DNA from: a virus
Lineage: Duplodnaviria > Heunggongvirae > Uroviricota > Caudoviricetes
IMG/VR virus record: IMGVR_UViG_2778261139_000004
Location: 1-39,211 of that record
Direction: 5' to 3' (one strand)
DNA length: 39,211 bases
The notes beneath the pieces are model-generated. The model saw only the letters and a program-made list of their open reading frames with translations, searched no databases and was not told the origin of the DNA. The position numbers and the translations under genes were made by a program. Shown here in pieces: positions 2,941-36,591 of the stretch. Position 1 is the first letter of the stretch. Each line of letters starts with the position of its first letter.

Positions 2941-3822
2941 TTAATTCGAAATGATTGTGCTTCTTATGCATGCAACTACCTCGATATCAGAAAATGCACA
3001 TTCAAAGTAAGTTTCTTTACTTCTGATATTTATCATACCTTTAGGTAGCCTAGTAATTTGTCTGACGGAATAGGTTCCATCAATATTAATTAACCAGTAT
3101 CCATCTAATACATCAGAAAATTTCTGATCACAGATGTATGTCACTAAACCATCCTGAACGACAATTGGTGCTGAAAGATTAGCGGGTAAAAATGACGAAT
3201 CGAAAATATATGAGCCACTCTCAACCATTTTGCCTGCATTGAGATGAAATTTAGGCAGTTCTTTTACCGATGTTGTGAGAGCATTGTGCTCGCTGCCTTG
3301 TCCAGTGGCTAGCCATAAAAGAGAATTTCCTGTTTCCAACGAACATTTTATGATCCAATCAGCCGGGAATGTGTCTCGCAAATATCTATTTGCCATAGTG
3401 CTTTTAGATACATTCAGATGGTCGGCAAGTTCTTGTCTTGTTTTAAAGCCATACGCTTTCATTAGCCTGTCTATTGCATCACGTCCGCCTGAGTCCAAAT
3501 TCAGATCGTTCCCAATTGGGGACTTCAGTGTGGTGGCTTGGGAAACGTGCTGAACCTTTGATGCAGTTGCCTTTGACATGACCGGAGCCTCAGTACTCTG
3601 AGGGAATGGTACGCCTTTTCCGAATGAGAGCCACTCGATAGATGCACCCGTTTCAATTGCACACTGAATTACCCAGTCAGCAGGAAATACGTCACGCATC
3701 CAGCGCGTGCCCATAGTGCTTGCAGATACGTTGAACTGTTCGCACAGAGCTTGCCTTGTCTTGAATCCATACGCTTCAAGCATGCGCGTTATGACTGCTT
3801 GTCCTCCGTTTTTGAAATTCAT
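2941..3822 (-). CDS. cI: CI-like immunity repressor (186 type) with a tandemly duplicated N-terminal DNA-binding domain
   Basis: 293-aa ORF divergent from the apl/cII operon. Two related segments occur in tandem (MLEAYGFKTRQALCEQFNVSASTMGTRWMRDVFPADWVIQCAIETGASIEWL and LMKAYGFKTRQELADHLNVSKSTMANRYLRDTFPADWIIKCSLETGNSLLWL), followed by one C-terminal domain. Confidence 0.75.
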   Translation of the reverse strand: MNFKNGGQAVITRMLEAYGFKTRQALCEQFNVSASTMGTRWMRDVFPADWVIQCAIETGASIEWLSFGKGVPFPQSTEAPVMSKATASKVQHVSQATTLKSPIGNDLNLDSGGRDAIDRLMKAYGFKTRQELADHLNVSKSTMANRYLRDTFPADWIIKCSLETGNSLLWLATGQGSEHNALTTSVKELPKFHLNAGKMVESGSYIFDSSFLPANLSAPIVVQDGLVTYICDQKFSDVLDGYWLINIDGTYSVRQITRLPKGMINIRSKETYFECAFSDIEVVACIRSTIISN

Positions 3823-9861: not shown

Positions 9862-10075
9862 CATTATGCTCTTTAGTGTAGGAACATTGGTTCCAGCCGG
9901 GTGATTAGCCAGGCTTAAATTTATTGTCCGGTTTAGGGTTGCGAAAGACACAGATTTCTCCTTCGCATCCCTGCCCGGGGCAGATATGCGAAGGAGAAAT
10001 CTGTGTCTTTCGCTGTCTTTAGTGAAGAGTCAAAGCGCTATGTAAAGTTGCATAGCGCTTTGGTTTTAAGAGGGG
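9862..10075 (+). ncRNA. Candidate retron msr-msd non-coding RNA region; boundaries approximate
   Basis: Structured non-coding DNA directly upstream of a retron-type RT: palindrome GGAAC-attg-GTTCC (9881-9894), perfect 28-bp inverted repeat (9941-10013) and a perfect 12-bp hairpin (10031-10062). a1/a2 repeats not confidently identified. Confidence 0.4.
9941..10013. repeat. Perfect 28-bp inverted repeat with a 17-nt partly palindromic spacer (candidate msd stem-loop)
   Basis: GCGAAAGACACAGATTTCTCCTTCGCAT (9941-9968) and its exact reverse complement (9986-10013); spacer CCCTGCCCGGGGCAGAT. Confidence 0.9.
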
Positions 10076-10079
10076 TTAT

Positions 10080-11015
10080 ATGCAACTAACTTCTAAAATT
10101 ATCAGTAAGTTTAATTATAATAGATTAGCTTTCCAATTACTTTTAAATGAGGCCCCCAAAAAATATAAAGTTTATTATATTCCTAAACGTGGCGCAGGTT
10201 TTCGGGTGATAGCTCAGCCGACAAAGGAACTAAAAAACGTACAGAGATTTATAGTATCTTTGCTACAGCCAAAGCTGCCTGTTCATCATAAGGCAATGGC
10301 ATATGAATATAAAAAAAGTATTAAAGATAATGCATTGTTGCATAAAGATAATAATTATATTCTTAAAATGGATTTTCAGAACTTCTTTAACAAAATTAAA
10401 CCTGATATATTTTTCTCGAAACTTGAGAACACAGGGCTGAAATTGGATTCATTTGATGAGAATACCCTACGTAATTTGCTTTTTTGGCGTCCGGGAAAAA
10501 AGAGAAGTACAACGTTGATATTAAGTGTAGGGGCGCCAAGCTCACCATTTATTAGTAATTTTGTTATGTATGACTTTGACAAGAGTCTTGATGATTGGTG
10601 CCGTAACAATGGTATCACTTATTCAAGGTATGCAGATGATATAACTTTTTCAACTAATATTAAGGATATATTGTGCAGGGTTCCTAAGGTGGTAAAAAAA
10701 ATGTTGTCGCTCCATGTTCCCGGTCTATCAATCAATGAATCTAAAACAATTTTTACATCGATGGCTCATAATCGGCACGTGACTGGTGTAACACTTACAC
10801 CTCAGGGCAATTTATCAATTGGTCGCGATCGTAAAAGGATGCTGTTTGCAAAGATTCATAAATATTCTTTGGGACTCTTATCTTCCGAAGAAATAAATAA
10901 AACCAAAGGGATGATTGCGTTTGCAAATTATTTGGAGGGTGATTTTTTATTAAGGTTACAAAAAAAATATGGTTGTGAGTTAATAACTAAGTTCCTGATG
11001 GAAGGAAACAAATAA
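10080..11015 (+). CDS. Retron-type reverse transcriptase
   Basis: 311 aa with the RT active-site motif YADD (SRYADDITFS), an upstream GAPSSP motif, and the retron-typical VTG motif (NRHVTGV) downstream. AT-rich cargo. Confidence 0.85.
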   Translation: MQLTSKIISKFNYNRLAFQLLLNEAPKKYKVYYIPKRGAGFRVIAQPTKELKNVQRFIVSLLQPKLPVHHKAMAYEYKKSIKDNALLHKDNNYILKMDFQNFFNKIKPDIFFSKLENTGLKLDSFDENTLRNLLFWRPGKKRSTTLILSVGAPSSPFISNFVMYDFDKSLDDWCRNNGITYSRYADDITFSTNIKDILCRVPKVVKKMLSLHVPGLSINESKTIFTSMAHNRHVTGVTLTPQGNLSIGRDRKRMLFAKIHKYSLGLLSSEEINKTKGMIAFANYLEGDFLLRLQKKYGCELITKFLMEGNK

Positions 11016-12649
11016 TGATAAATAAAATGAATTTAGAGACTTGCTATGTTGATTTTTTAGAGTTGGAATCACATGTGATAAACGAGGATTATTTGAAGGA
11101 GTCTGTTGAGCTTCAAAAGCTAATATCTACTTTAAATGAGAGTAAGTTTCATTTAAATAAAATAGGTATACATGATTTTAAACGGATAAGAGAACTACAG
11201 ATTTCTTTAGAAGATGATTTGACTGTTTTTGTCGGGGATAACGGATTCGGTAAAAGCACTATTTTGGATGCAATAGCAATTGTTTTGAGTTGGTTGAGAT
11301 CAAATATTGAAAAGGAGAGTAAGCCTGGTACTTATATTAAAAGCCATGAAGTTAATAACTCTGTTGATGTTGAGTATGCATCAATTGATGCAAATATAAA
11401 ACTCAAGGACTTTAATACCAGTATTTTGATTACTAAAGCGAAAGAGGGGGCATATTATTCTAGAAATAATGAATTGTTGGAGGTAAAAAAACTTGCAAGT
11501 ATTTATAGACTTGTGAATAAATATGTTGATAATGCAAGCTTGCCTTTGATGGCATATTATTCTATTGCGCGTTCTTATATAGGCGGCGGGGTTGATAGGA
11601 AAAGAAAAAATGCTAAAACTAAAACTGTATGGTCAAAATTCGATGTGTATGATGAAATCGAGTTTGACAGAAATGATTTTACCGATTTTTTTCAATGGCT
11701 TGTATTTCTTCATAACAGAGCTTCACAAGAGAAATTGAGTGAGTCACAAACGACAATCAATGCGTTATTTTCAGATATTCAGAGTTTGAAAGCAACATTA
11801 ACTCAACTATCTGCGATTGATAATATTGATTCAACAGTTATAAAAGGTTTAGAGCTTTCGCTTAAAGAAAAATTGAACTACATGAAATCTCTGCAATCAG
11901 GAGAACATAAGTTTAATAATGCAGTATCACTTTATGATAGTGTTATAAATACCATTCTAAAGTTCTTGCCTGAATTTCAGTGGATTAAGCTTGTTTATGG
12001 TGATGATGATTATAAGATTATCCTTAAAAAAGGAGAGGTTGAATTAGATATTCAACAGTTGTCTCAAGGTGAGAAAACTATATTTACTTTAGTTGGTGAT
12101 TTGGCTCGACGTTTAATTTTACTTAATCCAAATTTATCTAATCCTCTATTGGGATATGGGATTGTTTTAATTGATGAAATTGATTTGCATTTGCATCCGC
12201 AATGGCAACAGACAATTATTGAGCGTTTGACATCTACATTCCCAAATGTTCAATTTGTAATTACTACCCATAGCCCACAGGTTTTATCCACTGTTAGCTC
12301 TCGTTCAGTGCGTATTCTACAGGAAGTGGAAGTAGATGGTGTTAATGATTTGATAGTGTCTCACCCCGACTATCAAATAAAAGGTGTTAGTAATCAGGAT
12401 GCACTTTTATATGGAATGAGAACTGATCCTATACCCTCTACTAAAGAAAATGGTTGGCTTGAAGAATATAAAAAATTGGTTGAGCTTAATCGTTATAGCA
12501 GTGACGAGGCTCTTTTGTTAAGAGAAAAAGTTATTAAACATTTCGGATTAGACCATCCTTTAGTTCAAGAGTGTGATGATCTTATATCTGTTTTGGAGTT
12601 CAAAAATAAGATAAATCAGCACTTTTCTGGAAGTAAGGATGTAAAATGA
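11015..12649 (+). CDS. PtuA-like ABC/AAA-type ATPase (Septu-type effector partner of the RT)
   Basis: Walker A GDNGFGKST, Walker B VLIDEIDLHLHP, TTHSP motif. Start overlaps the RT stop. Confidence 0.8.
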   Translation: MINKMNLETCYVDFLELESHVINEDYLKESVELQKLISTLNESKFHLNKIGIHDFKRIRELQISLEDDLTVFVGDNGFGKSTILDAIAIVLSWLRSNIEKESKPGTYIKSHEVNNSVDVEYASIDANIKLKDFNTSILITKAKEGAYYSRNNELLEVKKLASIYRLVNKYVDNASLPLMAYYSIARSYIGGGVDRKRKNAKTKTVWSKFDVYDEIEFDRNDFTDFFQWLVFLHNRASQEKLSESQTTINALFSDIQSLKATLTQLSAIDNIDSTVIKGLELSLKEKLNYMKSLQSGEHKFNNAVSLYDSVINTILKFLPEFQWIKLVYGDDDYKIILKKGEVELDIQQLSQGEKTIFTLVGDLARRLILLNPNLSNPLLGYGIVLIDEIDLHLHPQWQQTIIERLTSTFPNVQFVITTHSPQVLSTVSSRSVRILQEVEVDGVNDLIVSHPDYQIKGVSNQDALLYGMRTDPIPSTKENGWLEEYKKLVELNRYSSDEALLLREKVIKHFGLDHPLVQECDDLISVLEFKNKINQHFSGSKDVK

Positions 12650-13329
12650 AATATCTATCTAGGCAAATGCCAGGGCCTTCCGTTCTTAATAAATTTGACT
12701 ATAGGAGGGATGATTGGAATTCCCTATCATCAAATGATAAAAAAGAAATATGGGAAGAAATAATAAAAATGCAAGGTAAATTATGTGCTTATTGCGAGAA
12801 AAAAATAGAGCATCATAAAAGTGGTGGCAAAAATAAAGTTGAGAGGCATATTGAGCATTTTTACAGGAAAAGTTATTACAAAAATTTAACTTTCGAGTGG
12901 TCTAATTTGTTTGGCTCATGTGGTGAGCCGCAAAGGTGTGGGTTTTATAAGGATAAGCAAAAATATAACGATGATGATTTAATTAAAGCTGATAGACAAA
13001 ATCCAGATGTTTTTTTCCATTTTTTGGAAAATGGTGATGTTCATATTAGAGAAGGCTTGAATGAGAAAGAACACAAAATGGCAGAGGTTACGTTAAGAGT
13101 ATTTAACTTAAACCCGTCCTCAGGAGGAGTCAAGGCGGAAAGAAGACGTGCAATAGAATTAAGCATGACATTAATAAAGGAACTGGTCGGATGTGCATCT
13201 CAGCTTATTGAATCAGGATGTGAAATTGAAGATGTTAGATCTATGGTCTTTGATGAGTTTAAAAAGAATGTAAAAGATAGATGCTTTACCACTGCGATAA
13301 AGCATGTTTTTGAGAATAGAATGCCTTAA
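12646..13329 (+). CDS. PtuB-like HNH-type nuclease
   Basis: CAYCEKKIEHH ... ERHIEHF ... SCGEPQRCG cysteine/histidine pattern consistent with an HNH zinc-finger nuclease. Overlaps the ATPase stop by 4 nt. Confidence 0.65.
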   Translation: MKYLSRQMPGPSVLNKFDYRRDDWNSLSSNDKKEIWEEIIKMQGKLCAYCEKKIEHHKSGGKNKVERHIEHFYRKSYYKNLTFEWSNLFGSCGEPQRCGFYKDKQKYNDDDLIKADRQNPDVFFHFLENGDVHIREGLNEKEHKMAEVTLRVFNLNPSSGGVKAERRRAIELSMTLIKELVGCASQLIESGCEIEDVRSMVFDEFKKNVKDRCFTTAIKHVFENRMP

Positions 13330-21281: not shown

Positions 21282-21720
21282 ATTGCAGAAGGTGGACGAC
21301 TGGTTGAGTGCCTTGCTGGCGAATCTGGAGCCAGCCGCAAGAAGCCGTATGATGCGCCAGCTGGCGCAAGAACTGCGCCGGACACAGCAGCAGAACATCA
21401 GGATGCAGCGCAATCCAGATGGCAGTAGTTATGAGCCGCGCAGAGTAACAGCACGCAGCAAAAAGGGGCGCATCAAACGTCAGATGTTTGCAAAGCTGCG
21501 CACCAAAAAATACCTGAAAACTGCCGCCAGCGCCGATTCTGCCAGCGTGCAGTTTGAAGGTAAGGTGCAGCGCATTGCCCGCGTTCATCACTACGGCCTG
21601 CGTGATCGTGTTAGTCGTAAGGGGCCGGAGGTACGTTATGCTGAGCGGCGGCTATTGGGTTTCAACGATGAAACTACTCTTCAAATTAAAACAATTTTAT
21701 CTAGTTACTTAATGGGGTGA
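21274..21720 (+). CDS. S: Tail completion protein S (P2 gpS-like)
   Basis: 148-aa ORF with a GTG start overlapping the R stop; the last codons are AT-rich. Confidence 0.75.
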   Translation: MAELQKVDDWLSALLANLEPAARSRMMRQLAQELRRTQQQNIRMQRNPDGSSYEPRRVTARSKKGRIKRQMFAKLRTKKYLKTAASADSASVQFEGKVQRIARVHHYGLRDRVSRKGPEVRYAERRLLGFNDETTLQIKTILSSYLMG

Positions 21721-21806: not shown

Positions 21807-23036
21807 GTGAGTATGAAAAAGCAAGATGAGTCCCCCAAAGCTGATAAATCAAATTTAGATAAAAGTGAGTCTGAACCACCAAAAGCGAACTCTATGGCAG
21901 ATGCCATGGCCATAGCGGCAGAGGTTGCTACGACAGCAACGTCAGTTCAAACATCAACCTTTGCAATTATCGCGGATTTTCTACGTTCAGGTGGTATAGA
22001 AAAACTAACTTCAAATGCTATCAAAAATTTAGAAATAAAAGTAAAGGGCCATTCTCAAGCGACAAGAACTACGGTATTGAGGAACCTGAAGACCTCTTTC
22101 AAAGAGGAGAATTTAGTTCTTGTTTTAGGTGCTGGCATTTCTTTAGATTACAGCATACCAACATGGAGTGAATTATTAAAGCGGCTATTGGCAAGAGCTT
22201 TGGATGATAAAAATGAAAATCAGAAAATGGTATCGGTTTTGTTTAATGAGGTTTTCGGTCCGAACGCACTCATAGCAGCCAGATATCTAAAACTACACTT
22301 TGATGGTATTAATACTCCCTTGGAAAAAGAAATTCAGCATGTTTTGTATGAATATTATCAGGAGGAAGAAAGCAGTACATTGAAAGCAATCAAGAAATTG
22401 TGCATATCGGCAGGCAAGTCACCAGGTCTAGATTCCGTTATTACATATAACTATGATGATATTTTGGAACAGACATTAACTAGAGCTGATGTTGGTATAA
22501 AGTATAAGGTGATTTCAAAGACGGGGCAGCATGCAAAAAATGATGAACTGCCGATCTACCATGTGCATGGCTATCTCCCATTGCAGGGGAAAGTTGAACT
22601 CGATGACACGCTAGTCCTTTCTGATGAAAGCTATCATAGGCAATACATGGATTTATACCATTGGAGCAATATGGTTCAGTTGAATAAATTCAAAGATGGA
22701 AATTGCCTGTTTGTTGGTCATTCCTTTACAGATCCAAACCTCAGAAGGTTGATGGATACAGCCAAAAAACTTAGAGGGAATGATTCTAAACCTCATTATT
22801 TAATTAAGTGTAGACATTCGAAAGAAGATGTGATTGCTAATATTCAAAGAATTGTTAGTGACTCAAGAAATGGATTTGATAATAAACTGAATATTAATGA
22901 GGATGCAATCGCGACCTCTCTTTTACAGACAGTGCATACTTTTGAAGAAATCGATGCTAATTCATTTGGCGTGAATGTTATTTGGATCGACTCTTACGAT
23001 GAGATTGCACCAATACTTAATGATCTAACACAATAA
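21807..23036 (+). CDS. SIR2-like (SIR2_2 / DUF4020-type) domain protein, putative NAD-depleting defence effector (cargo)
   Basis: 409 aa with the SIR2-like motifs VLVLGAGIS ... PTWSELL, ITYNYDDILEQ, IYHVHGYL, LVLSDESY and LFVGHSFTDPNL. AT-rich, inserted between S and V. Confidence 0.75.
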   Translation: MSMKKQDESPKADKSNLDKSESEPPKANSMADAMAIAAEVATTATSVQTSTFAIIADFLRSGGIEKLTSNAIKNLEIKVKGHSQATRTTVLRNLKTSFKEENLVLVLGAGISLDYSIPTWSELLKRLLARALDDKNENQKMVSVLFNEVFGPNALIAARYLKLHFDGINTPLEKEIQHVLYEYYQEEESSTLKAIKKLCISAGKSPGLDSVITYNYDDILEQTLTRADVGIKYKVISKTGQHAKNDELPIYHVHGYLPLQGKVELDDTLVLSDESYHRQYMDLYHWSNMVQLNKFKDGNCLFVGHSFTDPNLRRLMDTAKKLRGNDSKPHYLIKCRHSKEDVIANIQRIVSDSRNGFDNKLNINEDAIATSLLQTVHTFEEIDANSFGVNVIWIDSYDEIAPILNDLTQ

Positions 23037-24943: not shown

Positions 24944-25541
24944 TCTGCTGCCACCGGGTTCAACACCACTGGAGCGCCGACTGGCGCAGACCTGCAGCGG
25001 GATTTCTGATCTGCAGGTGCCGCTGCGTGACTTGTGGAATCCGGCTACCTGCCCGGTCAGCTTCCTGCCTTATCTCGCCTGGGCGTTCTCTGTGGATCGC
25101 TGGGACGAGGGCTGGACGGAAAGCGTCAAACGACAGGTGGTGAAGGATGCTTTTTATATTCATCAGCATAAAGGAACCACCAGTGCCGTGCGGCGGGTGG
25201 TGGAGCCGTTCGGCTTCCTGATCCGCATTATTGAGTGGTGGCAGACCGGAGAAACACCGGGTACGTTTCGCCTGGATATCGGCGTGCAGGACCAGGGCAT
25301 CACTGAAGATACCTATCTGGAACTTGAGCGACTGATAAGCGATGCCAAACCATGTAGCCGTCACATGATCGGCATGTCCATCAATCTGCAGACCAGCGGC
25401 CCGCATTGGGTGGGAGCCGCCAGCTATCTTGGCGAAGAAATCACGATCTATCCGTATATCAACGAAACAATTATTTCCGGCGGCACCGCGCATGAAGGTG
25501 GGGCGGTCCATGTTATTGACACAATGAGAGTGAATCCATGA
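24936..25541 (+). CDS. I: Tail protein I
   Basis: 201-aa ORF overlapping the J stop. Confidence 0.8.
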   Translation: MNSLLPPGSTPLERRLAQTCSGISDLQVPLRDLWNPATCPVSFLPYLAWAFSVDRWDEGWTESVKRQVVKDAFYIHQHKGTTSAVRRVVEPFGFLIRIIEWWQTGETPGTFRLDIGVQDQGITEDTYLELERLISDAKPCSRHMIGMSINLQTSGPHWVGAASYLGEEITIYPYINETIISGGTAHEGGAVHVIDTMRVNP

Positions 25542-27022
25542 GCACAAAATTTTATACCCTGCTGACGGATATTGGCGCGGCGAAACTTGCCAGCGCCGCC
25601 GCGCTCGGTGTGCCTTTAAAAATTACCCATATGGCGGTGGGCGATGGTGGCGGAACATTGCCGACGCCGGACGCAAAGCAGAGTGCACTGGTAAATGAGA
25701 AACGCCGGGCTGCGCTGAATATGCTCTATATCGACCCGCAGAACAGCAGCCAGATTATTGCTGAACAGGTGATCCCTGAAAACGAGGGCGGTTGGTGGAT
25801 ACGTGAAGTGGGCCTGTTTGATGAGTCAGGGGCATTGATTGCCGTGGGAAACTGCCCGGAAAGCTATAAACCGCAACTAGCTGAAGGCAGCGGGCGCACC
25901 CAGACCGTGCGCATGGTGCTGATTACCAGCAGTACGGACAATATCACCCTGAAAATCGACCCTGCTGTAGTGCTGGCAACCCGTAAATACGTGGATGATG
26001 AAGTCCTGGAATTAAAGCTGTATGTGGATGACCAGATGAGAAACCACATTGCCGCACAAGATCCTCATACCCAGTATGCGCAGAAACATAATCCGACATT
26101 TACCGGAGAACCAAAAGCGCCGACGCCTGCAGCAGGAAATAACACCACGCGGATTGCGACCACTGAGTTTGTTCAGGCCGCTATTACTGCTCTGATTAAC
26201 GGTGCGCCAGCCACGCTGGACACACTGAAAGAAATTGCCGCAGCCATTAACAATGACCCGAAATTCAGTACCACCATTAACAATGCGCTGGCACTAAAAG
26301 CCCCGCTGTCGAGTCCGGCACTCACCGGAACGCCAACAGCACCTACTGCGGCACAGTCGGTCAACAATACACAGATTGCCACTACAGCTTTTGTGAAATC
26401 AGCGATTGCAGCAATGGTGGGTTCTGCACCTGCGGCACTGGATACACTGAACGAACTGGCGGCGGCATTGGGGAATGATCCGAACTTTGCCACGACAATG
26501 CTTAATGCGCTGGCAGGTAAACAACCGCTGGACAATACGCTTACCAATTTGAGTGGAAAGGATGTAGCTGGTCTTCTCGCATACCTTGGTTTGGGAGAAG
26601 GCTCTGCATTACCTGTTGGTGTGCCTGTTCCATGGCCTTCAGCCACACCGCCAACAGGCTGGCTGAAATGCAACGGTGCGGCATTTTCTGCTGAAGAATA
26701 CCCGGAACTGGCAAAGGCTTATCCAACAAATAAATTACCTGATTTACGCGGTGAGTTTATTCGTGGCTGGGATGATGGGCGCGGGGTGGATTCCTCTCGT
26801 GGTTTGTTGACATCTCAAGACCATTTATTTGCTTCTCATGGGCACTGGTTTGACAAGTACTATGCGCTAACAGGTTTTGATCCAACGGGAGGTCGGTTCG
26901 TAGTTACGGCTGATGCTTTCGGGGAACTTATTACGGCAAATTCAATTTCTACGGTATCGGTTGGTGGTTCTGAAACCCGGCCGCGCAACGTCGCATTTAA
27001 CTATATCGTGAGGGCAGCCTGA
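25538..27022 (+). CDS. H: Tail fibre protein H, with the C-terminal variable part inside the invertible segment
   Basis: 494 aa with Ala/Thr-rich internal repeats; the C-terminal region lies beyond the recombination site at about 26586. Confidence 0.85.
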   Translation: MSTKFYTLLTDIGAAKLASAAALGVPLKITHMAVGDGGGTLPTPDAKQSALVNEKRRAALNMLYIDPQNSSQIIAEQVIPENEGGWWIREVGLFDESGALIAVGNCPESYKPQLAEGSGRTQTVRMVLITSSTDNITLKIDPAVVLATRKYVDDEVLELKLYVDDQMRNHIAAQDPHTQYAQKHNPTFTGEPKAPTPAAGNNTTRIATTEFVQAAITALINGAPATLDTLKEIAAAINNDPKFSTTINNALALKAPLSSPALTGTPTAPTAAQSVNNTQIATTAFVKSAIAAMVGSAPAALDTLNELAAALGNDPNFATTMLNALAGKQPLDNTLTNLSGKDVAGLLAYLGLGEGSALPVGVPVPWPSATPPTGWLKCNGAAFSAEEYPELAKAYPTNKLPDLRGEFIRGWDDGRGVDSSRGLLTSQDHLFASHGHWFDKYYALTGFDPTGGRFVVTADAFGELITANSISTVSVGGSETRPRNVAFNYIVRAA

Positions 27023-27624
27023 TGAATAAAGCCGTATTAAATAGCGAACTCATTACTACAAAGGCAGGAAACATTACCGTTTATAATTTTGATGCTGAGA
27101 CGAAGGAATATCTTTTCACATCAACCGAATATCTTGTTGTGGGTGTCGGTATTCCGGCGTATTCCTGTTTAGATGCTCCTGGTACATATAAGGCTGGTTA
27201 TACTATCTGCCGTTCAGCAGATTTAAAATCATGGGAATATATGCCAGACCATCGCGGTGAAATCGTTTTTAGCACCGAAACAGGGGAATCAAAAGAAATC
27301 ACAGCTCCGGGTGATTACCCTGATAATACAACCACTATCGCCCCGTTAACGCCATACGATAAATGGGATGGTGAGAAATGGGTGACGGATACCGAGGCAC
27401 AGCACGGCGCAGCAGTAGATGCAGCAGAAGCACAGCGCCAGTCGCTGATTGATACTGCAATGGCCTCCATCAGTCTGATTCAGCTGAAATTGCAGGCCGG
27501 ACGTAAACTGACGCAGGCAGAAACAACCCGCCTTAACGCTGTGCTGGATTACATTGACGCGGTGACGGCAACAGATACCAGCACCGCGCCGGATGTCATC
27601 TGGCCTGAACTGCCGGAGGCGTAG
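27022..27624 (+). CDS. G: Tail fibre assembly protein (G-like)
   Basis: 200 aa, ends ... APDVIWPELPEA. Confidence 0.8.
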   Translation: MNKAVLNSELITTKAGNITVYNFDAETKEYLFTSTEYLVVGVGIPAYSCLDAPGTYKAGYTICRSADLKSWEYMPDHRGEIVFSTETGESKEITAPGDYPDNTTTIAPLTPYDKWDGEKWVTDTEAQHGAAVDAAEAQRQSLIDTAMASISLIQLKLQAGRKLTQAETTRLNAVLDYIDAVTATDTSTAPDVIWPELPEA

Positions 27625-28048
27625 GCCATTCAATATCTGGCGCACCGGAAGTATCGACCAGCTCCAGTGCGTCCAGATAATCCAGCCACAAATTATATTG
27701 CGCCAGTTCATCATCTTTCAGACGACCAATAGCGGCTTTACCGGGCCATTGCTTACTGTTCATGTATTCGTTGGCCTGGTTAATTAGTAGCTGTCTTTCT
27801 GATTCAGTAATTTCAATAAGTTCTTCATGCGTGGGTGGAGGAATATCTGCCCACGCAGGCAGCCCATCATCTCCGGCAATACGGATTTTTCCTTGTGGCG
27901 GTTCAGCCATAAACTCACTGATAATATTTTGATTTACTTCCTTAGCGTCTGATAAATCCCATCCCTCTGATTTATATTTATCAATCATATCCACAGGGAA
28001 AAAAGCATTATGCCTTGCGCTATAAACATATTCGTTCATATAAATCAC
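27596..28048 (-). CDS. Alternative tail fibre assembly protein (G') in inverted orientation
   Basis: 150 aa, ends ... APDIEWPTPP, paralogous to the G C-terminus; convergent with G. Confidence 0.75.
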   Translation of the reverse strand: MIYMNEYVYSARHNAFFPVDMIDKYKSEGWDLSDAKEVNQNIISEFMAEPPQGKIRIAGDDGLPAWADIPPPTHEELIEITESERQLLINQANEYMNSKQWPGKAAIGRLKDDELAQYNLWLDYLDALELVDTSGAPDIEWPTPPAVQAR

Positions 28049-28059
28049 CCTGAATAAAA

Positions 28060-28434
28060 TTACTCACCAACAGCCCACCAACTGTAATTCATCGATACCG
28101 TGTCGCTGGTTGATGACGTTCTGTAAGCAGAATTAAAGCCGGTTAACGTTGGGCCTTCTGCAGTCATCACGAACCCTCGCCCAGCGCCTAAAGGCGCACC
28201 GCCATCACCAGAATGAGTAAGCATGGCGCAGTCCGCTTTTTTGGGGAAAGGGATGCTGAATGTAATTCTCATTGTTTGCGTCGATAATGTCGGCGTAACC
28301 GCACCACGACCATATTGCAGGATTTTCCCGTTAGGTAATTTCATCCATCCATCACCACTGGCAAAAGAGGCCATGTCCGGTATCTGATTTTCCCCTGTCC
28401 CCACATCCCGTTTTGCCGCTTCTCCCAAACCAAC
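28060..28434 (-). CDS. Promoterless alternative tail-fibre C-terminal cassette (H'), expressed only after inversion
   Basis: Minus-strand reading frame running from the right crossover site to a stop at 28060; it shares the LGLGE junction with H. The Met in the ORF track is unlikely to be a real start. Confidence 0.55.
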   Translation of the reverse strand, partial: VGLGEAAKRDVGTGENQIPDMASFASGDGWMKLPNGKILQYGRGAVTPTLSTQTMRITFSIPFPKKADCAMLTHSGDGGAPLGAGRGFVMTAEGPTLTGFNSAYRTSSTSDTVSMNYSWWAVGE

Positions 28435-28500
28435 GTTTAAGAAAATGCAGAGATAATGGCTAACTGGCATCATCCCCGGTTTTTATTCAGGGGATTGATC

Positions 28501-29058
28501 ATGCTTATTGGCTATGTACGCGTGTCAACAAATGACCAGAACACCGATTTGCAACGTAATGCACTGAACTGCGCGGGATGTGAGCGGATTTTTGAGGATA
28601 AAATCAGTGGCACTAAGTCCGACAGACCGGGGCTGAAAAAACTGCTCAGGACACTATCGGCAGGAGACACGCTGGTCGTCTGGAAGCTGGACAGGTTGGG
28701 GCGCAGTATGCGGCATCTTGTTACGCTGATAGAAGAGTTGCGCCAGCGTGGCGTGAATTTCCGAAGCCTGACTGACAGTATTGATACCAGTACCCCAATG
28801 GGCCGTTTCTTTTTTCATGTCATGGGTGCCCTGGCTGAAATGGAACGCGAACTGATAGTTGAACGCACTATGGCAGGGCTGGCTGCAGCTCGTGCCAAAG
28901 GCAGAGTAGGTGGACGCCGTCCTAAGTTGACCACCGAACAGTGGGCACAGATTGGACGTTTACTCGAGGCCGGAGAATCAAGACAGCGTATTGCGCTGAT
29001 TTTTGACGTGGGCGTTTCTACCATTTATAGAAAATTTCCGGCGAATAAGAGCAATTAA
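28501..29058 (+). CDS. pin: Serine DNA invertase (Pin/Gin/Hin/Cin family)
   Basis: MLIGYVRVSTNDQNTDLQRNAL ... with the catalytic serine in YVRVSTNDQ, DRLGRS, and a C-terminal HTH; very close to e14 Pin as recalled. Confidence 0.9.
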   Translation: MLIGYVRVSTNDQNTDLQRNALNCAGCERIFEDKISGTKSDRPGLKKLLRTLSAGDTLVVWKLDRLGRSMRHLVTLIEELRQRGVNFRSLTDSIDTSTPMGRFFFHVMGALAEMERELIVERTMAGLAAARAKGRVGGRRPKLTTEQWAQIGRLLEAGESRQRIALIFDVGVSTIYRKFPANKSN

Positions 29059-29115
29059 TCGCCCTGAATCAGCATTCTTTTGATTTTTCCTGTAAGCGGA
29101 CAAATACCGTCATTT

Positions 29116-29133
29116 TGTGTGAATAACGGCACA
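29116..29133. promoter_or_regulatory. TGT-N12-ACA element, candidate Ogr-dependent late promoter for the FI operon
   Basis: TGTGTGAATAACGGCACA about 75 bp upstream of the FI ATG, which has CAGGAGG as its Shine-Dalgarno. Confidence 0.35.
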
Positions 29134-29209
29134 ACTGCGATTAGCTGTTTGTCAGGCACAATCACTTCAACATAGGGCGAAGCCTAATCCAATCAGGAGG
29201 TTCGCCACT

Positions 29210-30382
29210 ATGGCTCAGGATTACCACCACGGGGTGCGCGTTGTTGAAGTCAACGAAGGCACCCGATCCATTACCACGGTGAGCACCGCCATCGTGGGTA
29301 TGGTCTGCACGGGCGATGATGCCGATGCAAAAATGTTCCCTCTTAATAAACCCGTGCTGATCACTGATGTGCTGACTGCCAGCGGTAAAGCGGGTGAGTC
29401 CGGTACTCTGGCCCGTTCGCTGGATGCCATCGCTGACCAGGCAAAACCCGTGACCGTTGTTGTGCGTGTGCCGCAGGGTGAAACGGAAGACGAAACCACG
29501 ACCAATATCATCGGCGCAGTGACCGCTGAAGGTAAAAAAACTGGCATGAAAGCCCTGTTATCTGCCCAGTCACAGCTCGGCGTTAAACCACGCATTCTGG
29601 GTGTACCTGGTCACGACACCAAGGCGGTAGCTACTGAGTTGCTGAGCGTGGCGCAAAGCCTGCGTGGGTTTGCTTACCTGTCAGCGTATGGCTGCAAGAC
29701 GATACAGGAGGCGATCACTTACCGTGAAAACTTCAGCCAGCGCGAAGGGATGCTGATCTGGCCTGACTTTACGGGCTGGGACACGGTGCTGAATGCCGAA
29801 GCAACGGCATATGCCACCGCTCGTGCGCTCGGTCTGCGCGCCAAAATTGATGAGCAGACCGGATGGCACAAAAGCCTGTCCAACGTGGGCGTGAACGGTG
29901 TCACCGGAATTTCTGCTGATGTGTTCTGGGATCTGCAGGACCCGGCAACCGATGCAGGTCTGCTTAACCAGAACGACGTTACCACGCTTATCCGCAAAGA
30001 CGGTTTCCGCTTCTGGGGTTCCCGCTGTCTGAGCGATGATCCGCTCTTTGCCTTCGAAAACTACACCCGAACCGCGCAGGTACTGATGGACACGATGGCA
30101 GAAGCGCACATGTGGGCAGTGGACAAACCGCTGAATCCGTCGCTGGCCCGCGACATTATCGAAGGTATCCGCGCCAAAATGCGCAGCCTGGTCAGTCAGG
30201 GGTATCTCATTGGTGGTGATTGCTGGCTGGACGAGTCGGTGAATGACAAAGACACTCTGAAAGCCGGGAAACTCACTATCGACTACGACTACACGCCAGT
30301 GCCGCCACTTGAAAACCTGATGCTGCGTCAGCGCATCACCGATCAGTACCTGGTGAATTTCGCCAGCCAGGTCAGCGCGTAA
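29210..30382 (+). CDS. FI: Tail sheath protein (P2 FI-like)
   Basis: 390-aa ORF with strong RBS, in the P2 FI position. Confidence 0.9.
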
Positions 30383-36137: not shown

Positions 36138-36356
36138 ATGATGATTTGCCCACTGTGTGGAAGTGCCGCCCATACTCGCAGCAGTTTTCAGGTATCTTCA
36201 TTGACCAAAGAGCGTTACAACCAGTGCCAGAACATTAACTGCAGCCATACTTTTGTTACCCATGAAACTTTTGTTCGTTCGATTGCAACGCCAAAAGAGT
36301 CAAATCCGGTTCAGCCGCATCCAATGAAATCAGGACAGGTGGCGCTCTCTCTTTGA
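36138..36356 (+). CDS. ogr: Ogr/Delta-type zinc-finger late transcription activator
   Basis: CPLCG ... C-x2-C zinc finger (MMICPLCGSAAHTRS ... CQNINCSHTF), resembling P2 Ogr; last prophage gene. Confidence 0.8.
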   Translation: MMICPLCGSAAHTRSSFQVSSLTKERYNQCQNINCSHTFVTHETFVRSIATPKESNPVQPHPMKSGQVALSL

Positions 36357-36436
36357 CGCTGCCGCCAATTTGTCGCCATCATTAAAAAACAGTGCTTCTA
36401 ACATCATGATTTTAAAAGGAATAAATTTCAGGCAAC

Positions 36437-36479
36437 AAAAAACCCATCAACCTTGAACCGAAATGGCGGGGTTGATGGG
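36437..36479 (-). terminator. Possible intrinsic terminator downstream of ybjL, at the prophage/host junction
   Basis: On the minus strand, CCCATCAACC ... GGTTGATGGG (10-bp arms) followed by a T-run; the loop is long and the element lies about 110 nt past the ybjL stop. Confidence 0.3.
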
Positions 36480-36591
36480 CTCCACAAAATGGGGACATCA
36501 AAGAAAAGCAGTGGCACTAATTAAGACTGATGCCCTGCGGAAAAGTTCTGCGGTTGTGCAAAAAAATTTCATTTTCAGGGCAACTTCAGTT

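Follow-up and report, generated by a model that had tools for sequence, protein, structure and literature searches.

A probable host-range inversion switch in the tail-fibre region of a P2/186-like prophage from Escherichia coli SC475

Can the tail fibre of a P2/186-like prophage exist in two forms, in which one constant fibre part is joined to either of two tips, and if so, by which enzyme and at which sites would the tips be exchanged? This question is raised by the virus record IMGVR_UViG_2778261139_000004 from IMG/VR (Caudoviricetes), which comprises 39,211 nucleotides and is referred to as a whole as the window. In this window the tail-fibre gene H and its chaperone gene G are followed by a second, oppositely oriented pair of tip and chaperone sequences and by a gene for a site-specific DNA invertase. 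The region of the switch shows 100% DNA identity to the genome of the Escherichia coli isolate SC475 (NZ_LR778148.1); by this match the window corresponds to positions 2796116-2835326 of the genome, and the annotation fetched for this interval agrees with the window content. The window holds an apparently complete P2/186-like prophage of this isolate. We interpret the locus as a two-state site-specific inversion switch of the Din family (Hin/Gin/Cin/Pin), which very probably controls the host range of the prophage. The switch is real and probably active, and it belongs to a standard, already described and very common kind of phage host-range system.

Crossover sites and the segment between them

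An earlier interpretation of this DNA, made from the letters alone and here called the sequence-only reading, had claimed an 18-bp inverted repeat with 17 of 18 matches, one copy of which was placed within H at the junction of the constant and the variable part and the other one just upstream of the invertase gene. The repeat is present at 26583-26600 (ACCTTGGTTTGGGAGAAG) and 28419-28436, whereby the start coordinate is shifted by one base relative to the earlier one and the placement of both copies agrees. It is the sole such pair between positions 25000 and 30500, where shuffled sequences give 0.02, and it grows to 27 nt at 81% complementarity when gaps are disallowed in the repeat search. 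The repeat constitutes the inner part of two 26-bp crossover sites of the Din type, each consisting of two 12-bp half-sites and a 2-bp core. The left site (26574-26599; TTCTCGCATACC-TT-GGTTTGGGAGAA, with the central TT at 26586-26587) is located inside H, where its core falls at codon 350 of 494. The right site (28420-28445; TTCTCCCAAACC-AA-CGTTTAAGAAAA, with the central AA at 28432-28433) ends 56 bp before the ATG of the invertase gene at 28501. Both sites show the imperfect dyad symmetry and the mutually inverted orientation that characterize sites of the Din family.

As a probe for a scan of the whole 39-kb window we used the sequence TTCTCNNAAACCNNGGTTTNNGAGAA, which we take to be the Din site consensus. 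With up to 3 mismatches allowed, the scan led to the identification of the left and the right site only, which deviate from the probe at 1 and 2 positions, respectively, and there were 0 hits in 100 shuffles. The probe also picks out the e14 and Mu sites at their annotated segment boundaries and is thereby validated. A third crossover site, as would be present in a shufflon-like locus with three or more sites, was considered as well and rejected, since none occurs in the whole window at this threshold.

The sites were then compared with those of the P segment of the E. coli element e14. The left site deviates in 3 of its 26 positions from the e14 site that lies inside stfP, and the right site in a single one of 26 from the e14 site upstream of pinE. 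Both elements share the same cores, TT in the left site and AA in the right one. The e14 P segment has been shown experimentally to invert, and its published inner repeats are TTGGTTTGGGAGAAGG and CCTTCTCCCAAACCAA (PMC12529663). The window matches these repeats at 16/16 and 15/16 positions, whereby the left-site core at 26586-26601 is equal to the published repeat TTGGTTTGGGAGAAGG. A difference in the central dinucleotide had been named in the sequence-only reading as a possible objection. The alignment revealed that TT (left) and AA (right) on the + strand are identical cores when the sites are aligned in inverted orientation, so that this objection does not apply, and that both sites match the e14 pix sites.

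Measured between the central dinucleotides of both sites, the invertible segment has a size of 1848 bp (26586-28433). In the current assembly, H (25538-27022, + strand) encodes a protein of 494 amino acids, as seen from the open reading frame (ORF) and its translation, from Pfam and from the Prokaryotic Genome Annotation Pipeline (PGAP). Its constant part comprises codons 1-350 (25538-26587, + strand) and is followed by the variable tip (26588-27022, + strand). Pfam assigns residues 1-150 to Phage_tail_fib (PF12571, the P2-type N-terminal fibre domain) and residues 361-408 to the Collar domain, which lies in this tip. G (27022-27624, + strand) encodes the predicted chaperone for the current tip, a TfaE-like protein of 200 amino acids. 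On the opposite strand there are G' (27596-28039, - strand, with the start set at 28039 by PGAP), which encodes an alternative, TfaP-like chaperone of 147 amino acids, and a silent alternative C-terminus of H (28060-28433, - strand), which encodes a gp53-like tip of 123 amino acids including the shared residues GLGE. The products of G and G' both fall into the Pfam family Caudo_TAP and the silent tip into Gp53-like_C. This is the content that had been claimed for the segment, namely G with an H C-terminus on the + strand and G' with an alternative one on the - strand. G and G' are convergent and overlap at their 3' ends by 29 nt (27596-27624), and all five ORFs of the switch are intact. The LDYIDA/LDYLDA motifs, which are conserved in G and G', yield an 18-nt inverted repeat of their own at 27543-27560 and 27669-27686.

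With respect to e14, the current H tip shows 59% identity to the C-terminus of StfE, whereby the start and the end are nearly identical and the middle has diverged, and G shows 86.5% identity to TfaE. G' is 53.6% identical to TfaP over 112 amino acids, and the gp53-like tip is 26% identical to the StfP tip (E 0.006). At such a low identity we rejected the gp53-like tip as an orthologue of the StfP tip; the fold family is common to both. By these sequence comparisons, the currently expressed side is the E side and the silent side the P side of the e14 system.

When the segment 26586-28433 is inverted in silico, H residues 1-354 remain unchanged, with the identical inner half-sites encoding residues 351-354 (GLGE). 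The inverted frame runs on into the gp53-like tip and yields an intact H' of 473 amino acids, and G' begins 20 nt later. Thus, the swap of tip and chaperone that had been proposed is borne out at the level of the reading frames: inversion places the alternative tip in frame behind H residues 1-350, and the tip is then followed by G'.

The invertase and its putative enhancer

The invertase gene (28501-29058, + strand) is located outside the invertible segment and encodes a serine DNA invertase of the Pin/Gin/Cin/Hin family with 185 amino acids. The protein has the size (about 185-195 amino acids in the family) and the domains of a Din-family enzyme, with Pfam matches to Resolvase, the N-terminal catalytic domain (6.5e-53), and to HTH_7, the C-terminal DNA-binding domain (1.5e-15). 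It was said earlier to be very close to e14 Pin, and it is indeed 86.7% identical to e14 PinE, followed by 78.9% identity to Cin of P1 and 76.7% identity to Gin of Mu. Residues 1-184 align without gaps to the Gin structure sequences 3UJ3 and 4M6F (E 1.4e-93 for 3UJ3), whereas gamma-delta resolvase reaches only 1e-31 to 4e-34. Furthermore, the protein is 99.5% identical to the annotated invertase of the P2-like phage Cartapus and to the one encoded in the unannotated record of Klebsiella phage Kp4845-2.

Functional residues were mapped by the gapless offset, in which the Hin number equals the query number plus 1. The catalytic serine is Ser9 (Hin S10; Gin S9) and lies within the motif YVRVST, and the conserved arginines Arg7, Arg42 (Hin R43), Arg68 and Arg71 are present. 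The basic residues of helix B are kept (Lys46, Lys47 and Arg50, corresponding to Hin K47, R48 and K51), as are Phe104, His106 (Hin H107) and Met108 of the oligomerisation helix and Gln150, Arg153 and Leu154 (Hin Q151, R154 and L155). In Hin, the basic residues and the Q/R/L residues contact the enhancer and Fis; they are kept in Fis-dependent invertases and absent from resolvases (PMC3798978). In comparison with Hin, every known position of Fis or enhancer contact is conserved in the window invertase.

The sequence-only reading had suggested that a Fis-bound enhancer should be sought in the 5' part of the invertase gene. A putative recombinational enhancer can be delimited at 28523-28585 (+ strand). 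It consists of two Fis-like 15-mers, TGTCAACAAATGACC at 28523-28537 and GCGCGGGATGTGAGC at 28571-28585, the centres of which are 48 bp apart; both were picked with a degenerate motif that we take to be the Fis consensus. The proximal 15-mer and the right site are ~97 bp apart from centre to centre, which agrees with the native geometry of Hin, where the enhancer is ~100 bp away from the crossover site (PMC3798978). The first 100 nt of the invertase gene align to pin, gin and cin with very few differences. In a synonymous-site test, which was confined to codons whose amino acid is invariant across the four genes (window invertase, pin, gin and cin), 33% of the codons were nucleotide-identical in codons 1-33 compared to 9% in the rest of the gene (Fisher p = 0.004), as a cis element embedded in the coding sequence would produce. 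Between the site centre and the ATG of the invertase gene there are 68.5 bp in the window compared to 67.5 bp in Mu and e14. Overall, the search yielded two Fis-like 15-mers and a conserved block, whereas the motif taken by itself is not significant. Thus, a Fis enhancer at 28523-28585 is plausible and consistent with the sequence, but unproven.

Following the established knowledge of Hin and Gin, from which we infer the individual steps, dimers of the invertase would bind to both 26-bp sites (26574-26599 and 28420-28445), and the sites would synapse, most likely on an enhancer that is occupied by Fis and lies within the initial ~90 bp of the invertase gene. The strands would be cut with a 2-bp stagger at TT/AA, whereby phosphoserine links to the DNA would be formed. 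One pair of subunits would turn by 180 degrees, and religation would leave the 1848-bp segment inverted. As in other systems of the Din family, the reaction would require Fis and HU of the host as well as supercoiled DNA. In the state that is represented by the window, H codons 1-350 would be continued by the StfE-like Collar-domain tip, followed by the TfaE-like chaperone G. In the other state, the same 350 codons would be continued by the gp53-like tip, followed by the TfaP-like chaperone G'. A culture of the lysogen would release mixed virions with two receptor specificities, which may be assigned to the two tips by analogy with Mu, P1 and carotovoricin.

Orientations in natural relatives and rival explanations

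Among 5426 complete E. coli genomes, 3094 contain matches to parts of the 3.5-kb query that covers the switch. Both orientations, which the sequence-only reading had proposed to look for, occur in nature with breakpoints exactly at the sites: the window arrangement was found in 127 complete E. coli genomes at a coverage of at least 80%, and the arrangement inverted in silico in 107. For the inverted form, the top matches each run collinearly in a single alignment with 96.1% identity, compared to 94.5% for the best match in window orientation when the source record is excluded. As the relatives with the inverted form are the closer ones, orientation does not go along with relatedness. Exact recombinants are seen at both junctions in NZ_CM151364.1, where the outer half-sites remain with their flanks and the exchange falls within the 15-bp stretch of identity in which the core lies. 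The clearest pair is provided by the chicken isolates GPEC1040 and GPEC1366, which carry the same prophage with the same two sites and with flanking proteins of identical accessions on both sides. Their segments of 1911 bp are 100% identical and opposite in orientation, flipped exactly between the sites. These comparisons of relatives show that the segment inverts in nature at precisely these breakpoints. For the e14 P segment and for two P2-like prophages of enteropathogenic E. coli (EPEC) E2348/69, both, or four, orientations have been reported to coexist in populations grown from single colonies (PMC4272514).

The same module is also present in P2-like phages recorded from Klebsiella pneumoniae (OK490395.1 and related records; OM835953.1), with ~92% DNA identity and an invertase that is 99.5% identical. 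Its presence in Klebsiella phages indicates that the module is shared across enterobacterial genera.

Among the alternatives, the one that survives best is that the switch serves the lysogen, besides or instead of changing the host range. The silent tip can also be read as a free-standing ORF of 136 amino acids (28060-28470, - strand), whose ATG at 28470 lies in the fixed DNA beyond the right site. Its product would then act as a receptor blocker against other phages, like StfE2 of e14. The ORF is built like the e14 gene, with a leader in fixed DNA upstream of the invertase gene, the site and a gp53-like domain, and PGAP annotates it separately as a "gp53-like domain-containing protein". StfE2 has been reported to block the adsorption of phage T2 (PMC12529663), a claim that comes from a single study. 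Nevertheless, we consider this role unlikely. The tip shares just 26% identity with the StfP tip of e14, and the ATG at 28470, as read from the sequence, has an abutting G run and no properly spaced Shine-Dalgarno sequence. In addition, no promoter was detected for the ORF in a scan of 26400-29300, and a function in the virion suffices as an explanation in a prophage that looks complete. If the lysogen expressed this ORF, the switch would also serve as a superinfection defence under the control of a recombinase; as its sites match those of e14, further Pin-family invertases of the host could flip it in trans, too. The start codons of the ORF lie in a short block (GGCATCAT, + strand), which is conserved upstream of pin and gin as well.

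A second alternative holds that the locus is a locked fossil, in which the architecture has been inherited while the invertase or a site is dead and the tip is fixed in its current orientation. Here, the points have to be considered that weigh against an active switch with the properties set out above. The evidence for flipping comes from relatives of SC475, from whose sequences the activity in SC475 itself is inferred. The scan of 26400-29300 found no sigma-70-like promoter upstream of the invertase gene, and the counts of promoters and terminators in this interval equalled those of shuffles. The outer half of the left site has a T in place of the consensus A (CATACC). Finally, the degenerate motif with two Fis sites gave 4 matches over the whole window compared to 2.7 expected, which is not significant alone; we rejected it as stand-alone evidence, and only its homologous position and its conservation count. 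Against a fossil, on the other hand, stands the fact that the five ORFs are intact and that the catalytic and the Fis-contact residues of the invertase are all conserved. The CATACC variant of the left site occurs in relatives of both orientations. Moreover, the closest relatives of the 3.5-kb region carry the inverted form and not the one seen in the window. A switch that is locked in SC475 is therefore very unlikely in our view.

That the two orientations in the databases reflect assembly artefacts or RecA-dependent recombination between short repeats, rather than the action of the invertase, is extremely improbable: the sites do share an identical block of 15-16 bp that is able in principle to recombine, but this is known to be below the length which RecA needs for efficient recombination, the breakpoints are located exactly at genuine Din sites beside an intact Din invertase, and the near-even split of orientations over hundreds of independent complete assemblies fits frequent enzymatic flipping.

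The invertase-driven two-state switch is thus the preferred interpretation, and its value lies mainly in annotation, since PGAP labels the five genes separately and gives no mark of an invertible switch. Once the switch is recognised, the apparent H pseudogenes are accounted for, and so are the differences that assemblies show between otherwise identical prophages. Two host ranges are predicted for a single prophage, and no new biological question arises. Pseudogene calls for H, with the remark 'incomplete' or 'frameshifted', were made by PGAP in relatives (1501-1890 of our locus L003, 3001-3390 of L008 and 3001-4547 of L007). Where relatives have the other orientation, H is broken up by PGAP into a pseudogene and separate tail-protein ORFs; in L003 and L008, whose orientation is opposite to that of the window, the gp53-like tip has been given a coding sequence of its own. 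Such calls may have arisen as a by-product of annotation, caused either by the switch or by a frameshifted constant part.

The prophage and related switches

The gene order of the prophage starts with the integrase, the CI/CII regulators and the replication genes, followed by the capsid module, the lysis genes, V-W-J-I, H, G, FI-FII-E-T-U-D and ogr. To the right of the prophage there are the host genes ybjL, ybjM and grxA. The gene for the small RNA RybB is located directly right of ogr (36434-36512, - strand; Rfam, 105 bits). The prophage therefore has its right end, and probably its attachment site too, next to rybB and ybjL.

A TGT-N12-ACA element is located at 29116-29133 (+ strand), ~75 nt upstream of the tail-sheath gene FI, and resembles what we take to be the motif of the Ogr-dependent late promoter pF of P2. 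If it is pF, the invertase gene would be placed upstream of the F operon. The virion morphogenesis gene and ogr are connected by an inverted repeat of ~21 nt (21507-21527 and 36178-36198), which may have arisen by chance, as ~0.27 such pairs are expected per window.

The prophage also carries cargo. Between a DinI-like gene and the portal gene there is a retron defence system (9940-13329, + strand), which consists of a reverse transcriptase of the St85 family (10080-11015, + strand), an AAA ATPase (11015-12649, + strand) and the HNH effector PtuB (12646-13329, + strand). Just upstream of the reverse transcriptase gene lies a long, near-perfect hairpin (9940-10014), which resembles the msd stem of a retron non-coding RNA; a search of this hairpin against Rfam gave no match. 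A gene for a SIR2-family protein (21813-23036, + strand) is inserted between the virion morphogenesis gene and the baseplate gene V and is probably a second anti-phage cargo gene. The prophages of GPEC1040 and GPEC1366 lack a SIR2-family gene at this position. Two hypothetical genes (174 and 400 amino acids) between the integrase and the CI repressor (1135-2860, - strand) likely mark a further cargo slot.

Canonical P2 (NC_001895) has the same order of late genes, V W J I H G and then FI FII E T U D. However, it has neither an invertase nor an alternative tip, and a Z/fun cargo gene occupies the interval from G to FI. The enzyme family is the same as in the C segment of P1 with Cin and in the H segment of Salmonella with Hin, and the Fis- and enhancer-dependent mechanism of these systems probably applies to the window as well. 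Hin, in contrast, switches a flagellin promoter and not a fibre tip, and hin sits inside its own segment, unlike the window invertase. The G segment of Mu with Gin follows the same logic of S/U and S'/U' pairs, with the invertase just outside the right site as in the window. The distance from the site to the ATG agrees within 1 bp, and the invertase genes share a conserved 5' block. The two differ in that the Mu segment comprises ~3 kb, the gix core is GA/TC compared to TT/AA in the window, and the constant fibre parts are unrelated.

Closer in terms of the phage are the P2-like prophages of EPEC E2348/69, in which an invertase homologous to Hin and inverted repeats swap the C-termini of tail fibres (Goldberg et al., 2014; PMC4272514). 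Like the window prophage, they combine a P2-like genome with an invertase-driven exchange of the fibre C-terminus. One of these loci has three repeats and four variants, whereas the window has only two sites.

The P segment with PinE from e14, a cryptic prophage of E. coli K-12, shows the same order throughout, namely the constant fibre part, site, tip, tfa, convergent tfa', tip', site and invertase. Its tips belong to the same two Pfam families as those in the window, Collar and Gp53-like_C, and tfaP and tfaE overlap by 29 nt (3518-3546 of our e14 locus L002), which is also the overlap of G and G'. The segment measures 1797 bp in e14 as published (PMC12529663) compared to 1848 bp in the window. 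Both tip and chaperone pairs, convergent and overlapping tfa genes and sites of the pix type, which define a P segment module of the e14 type, are all found in the window. Within the segment the proteins have diverged from those of e14, with G' at 54% to TfaP, the gp53-like tip at 26% to the StfP tip and the Collar tip at 59% with its diverged middle. The constant part sets the two elements apart: in e14 it is a truncated lambdoid Stf within a defective element, in the window it is a P2-type H within an apparently complete prophage. Upstream of the left site there is no DNA similarity to e14, and the constant part of the e14 Stf is not matched in the window. The module is thus an e14-type P segment mounted on a P2-type H gene.

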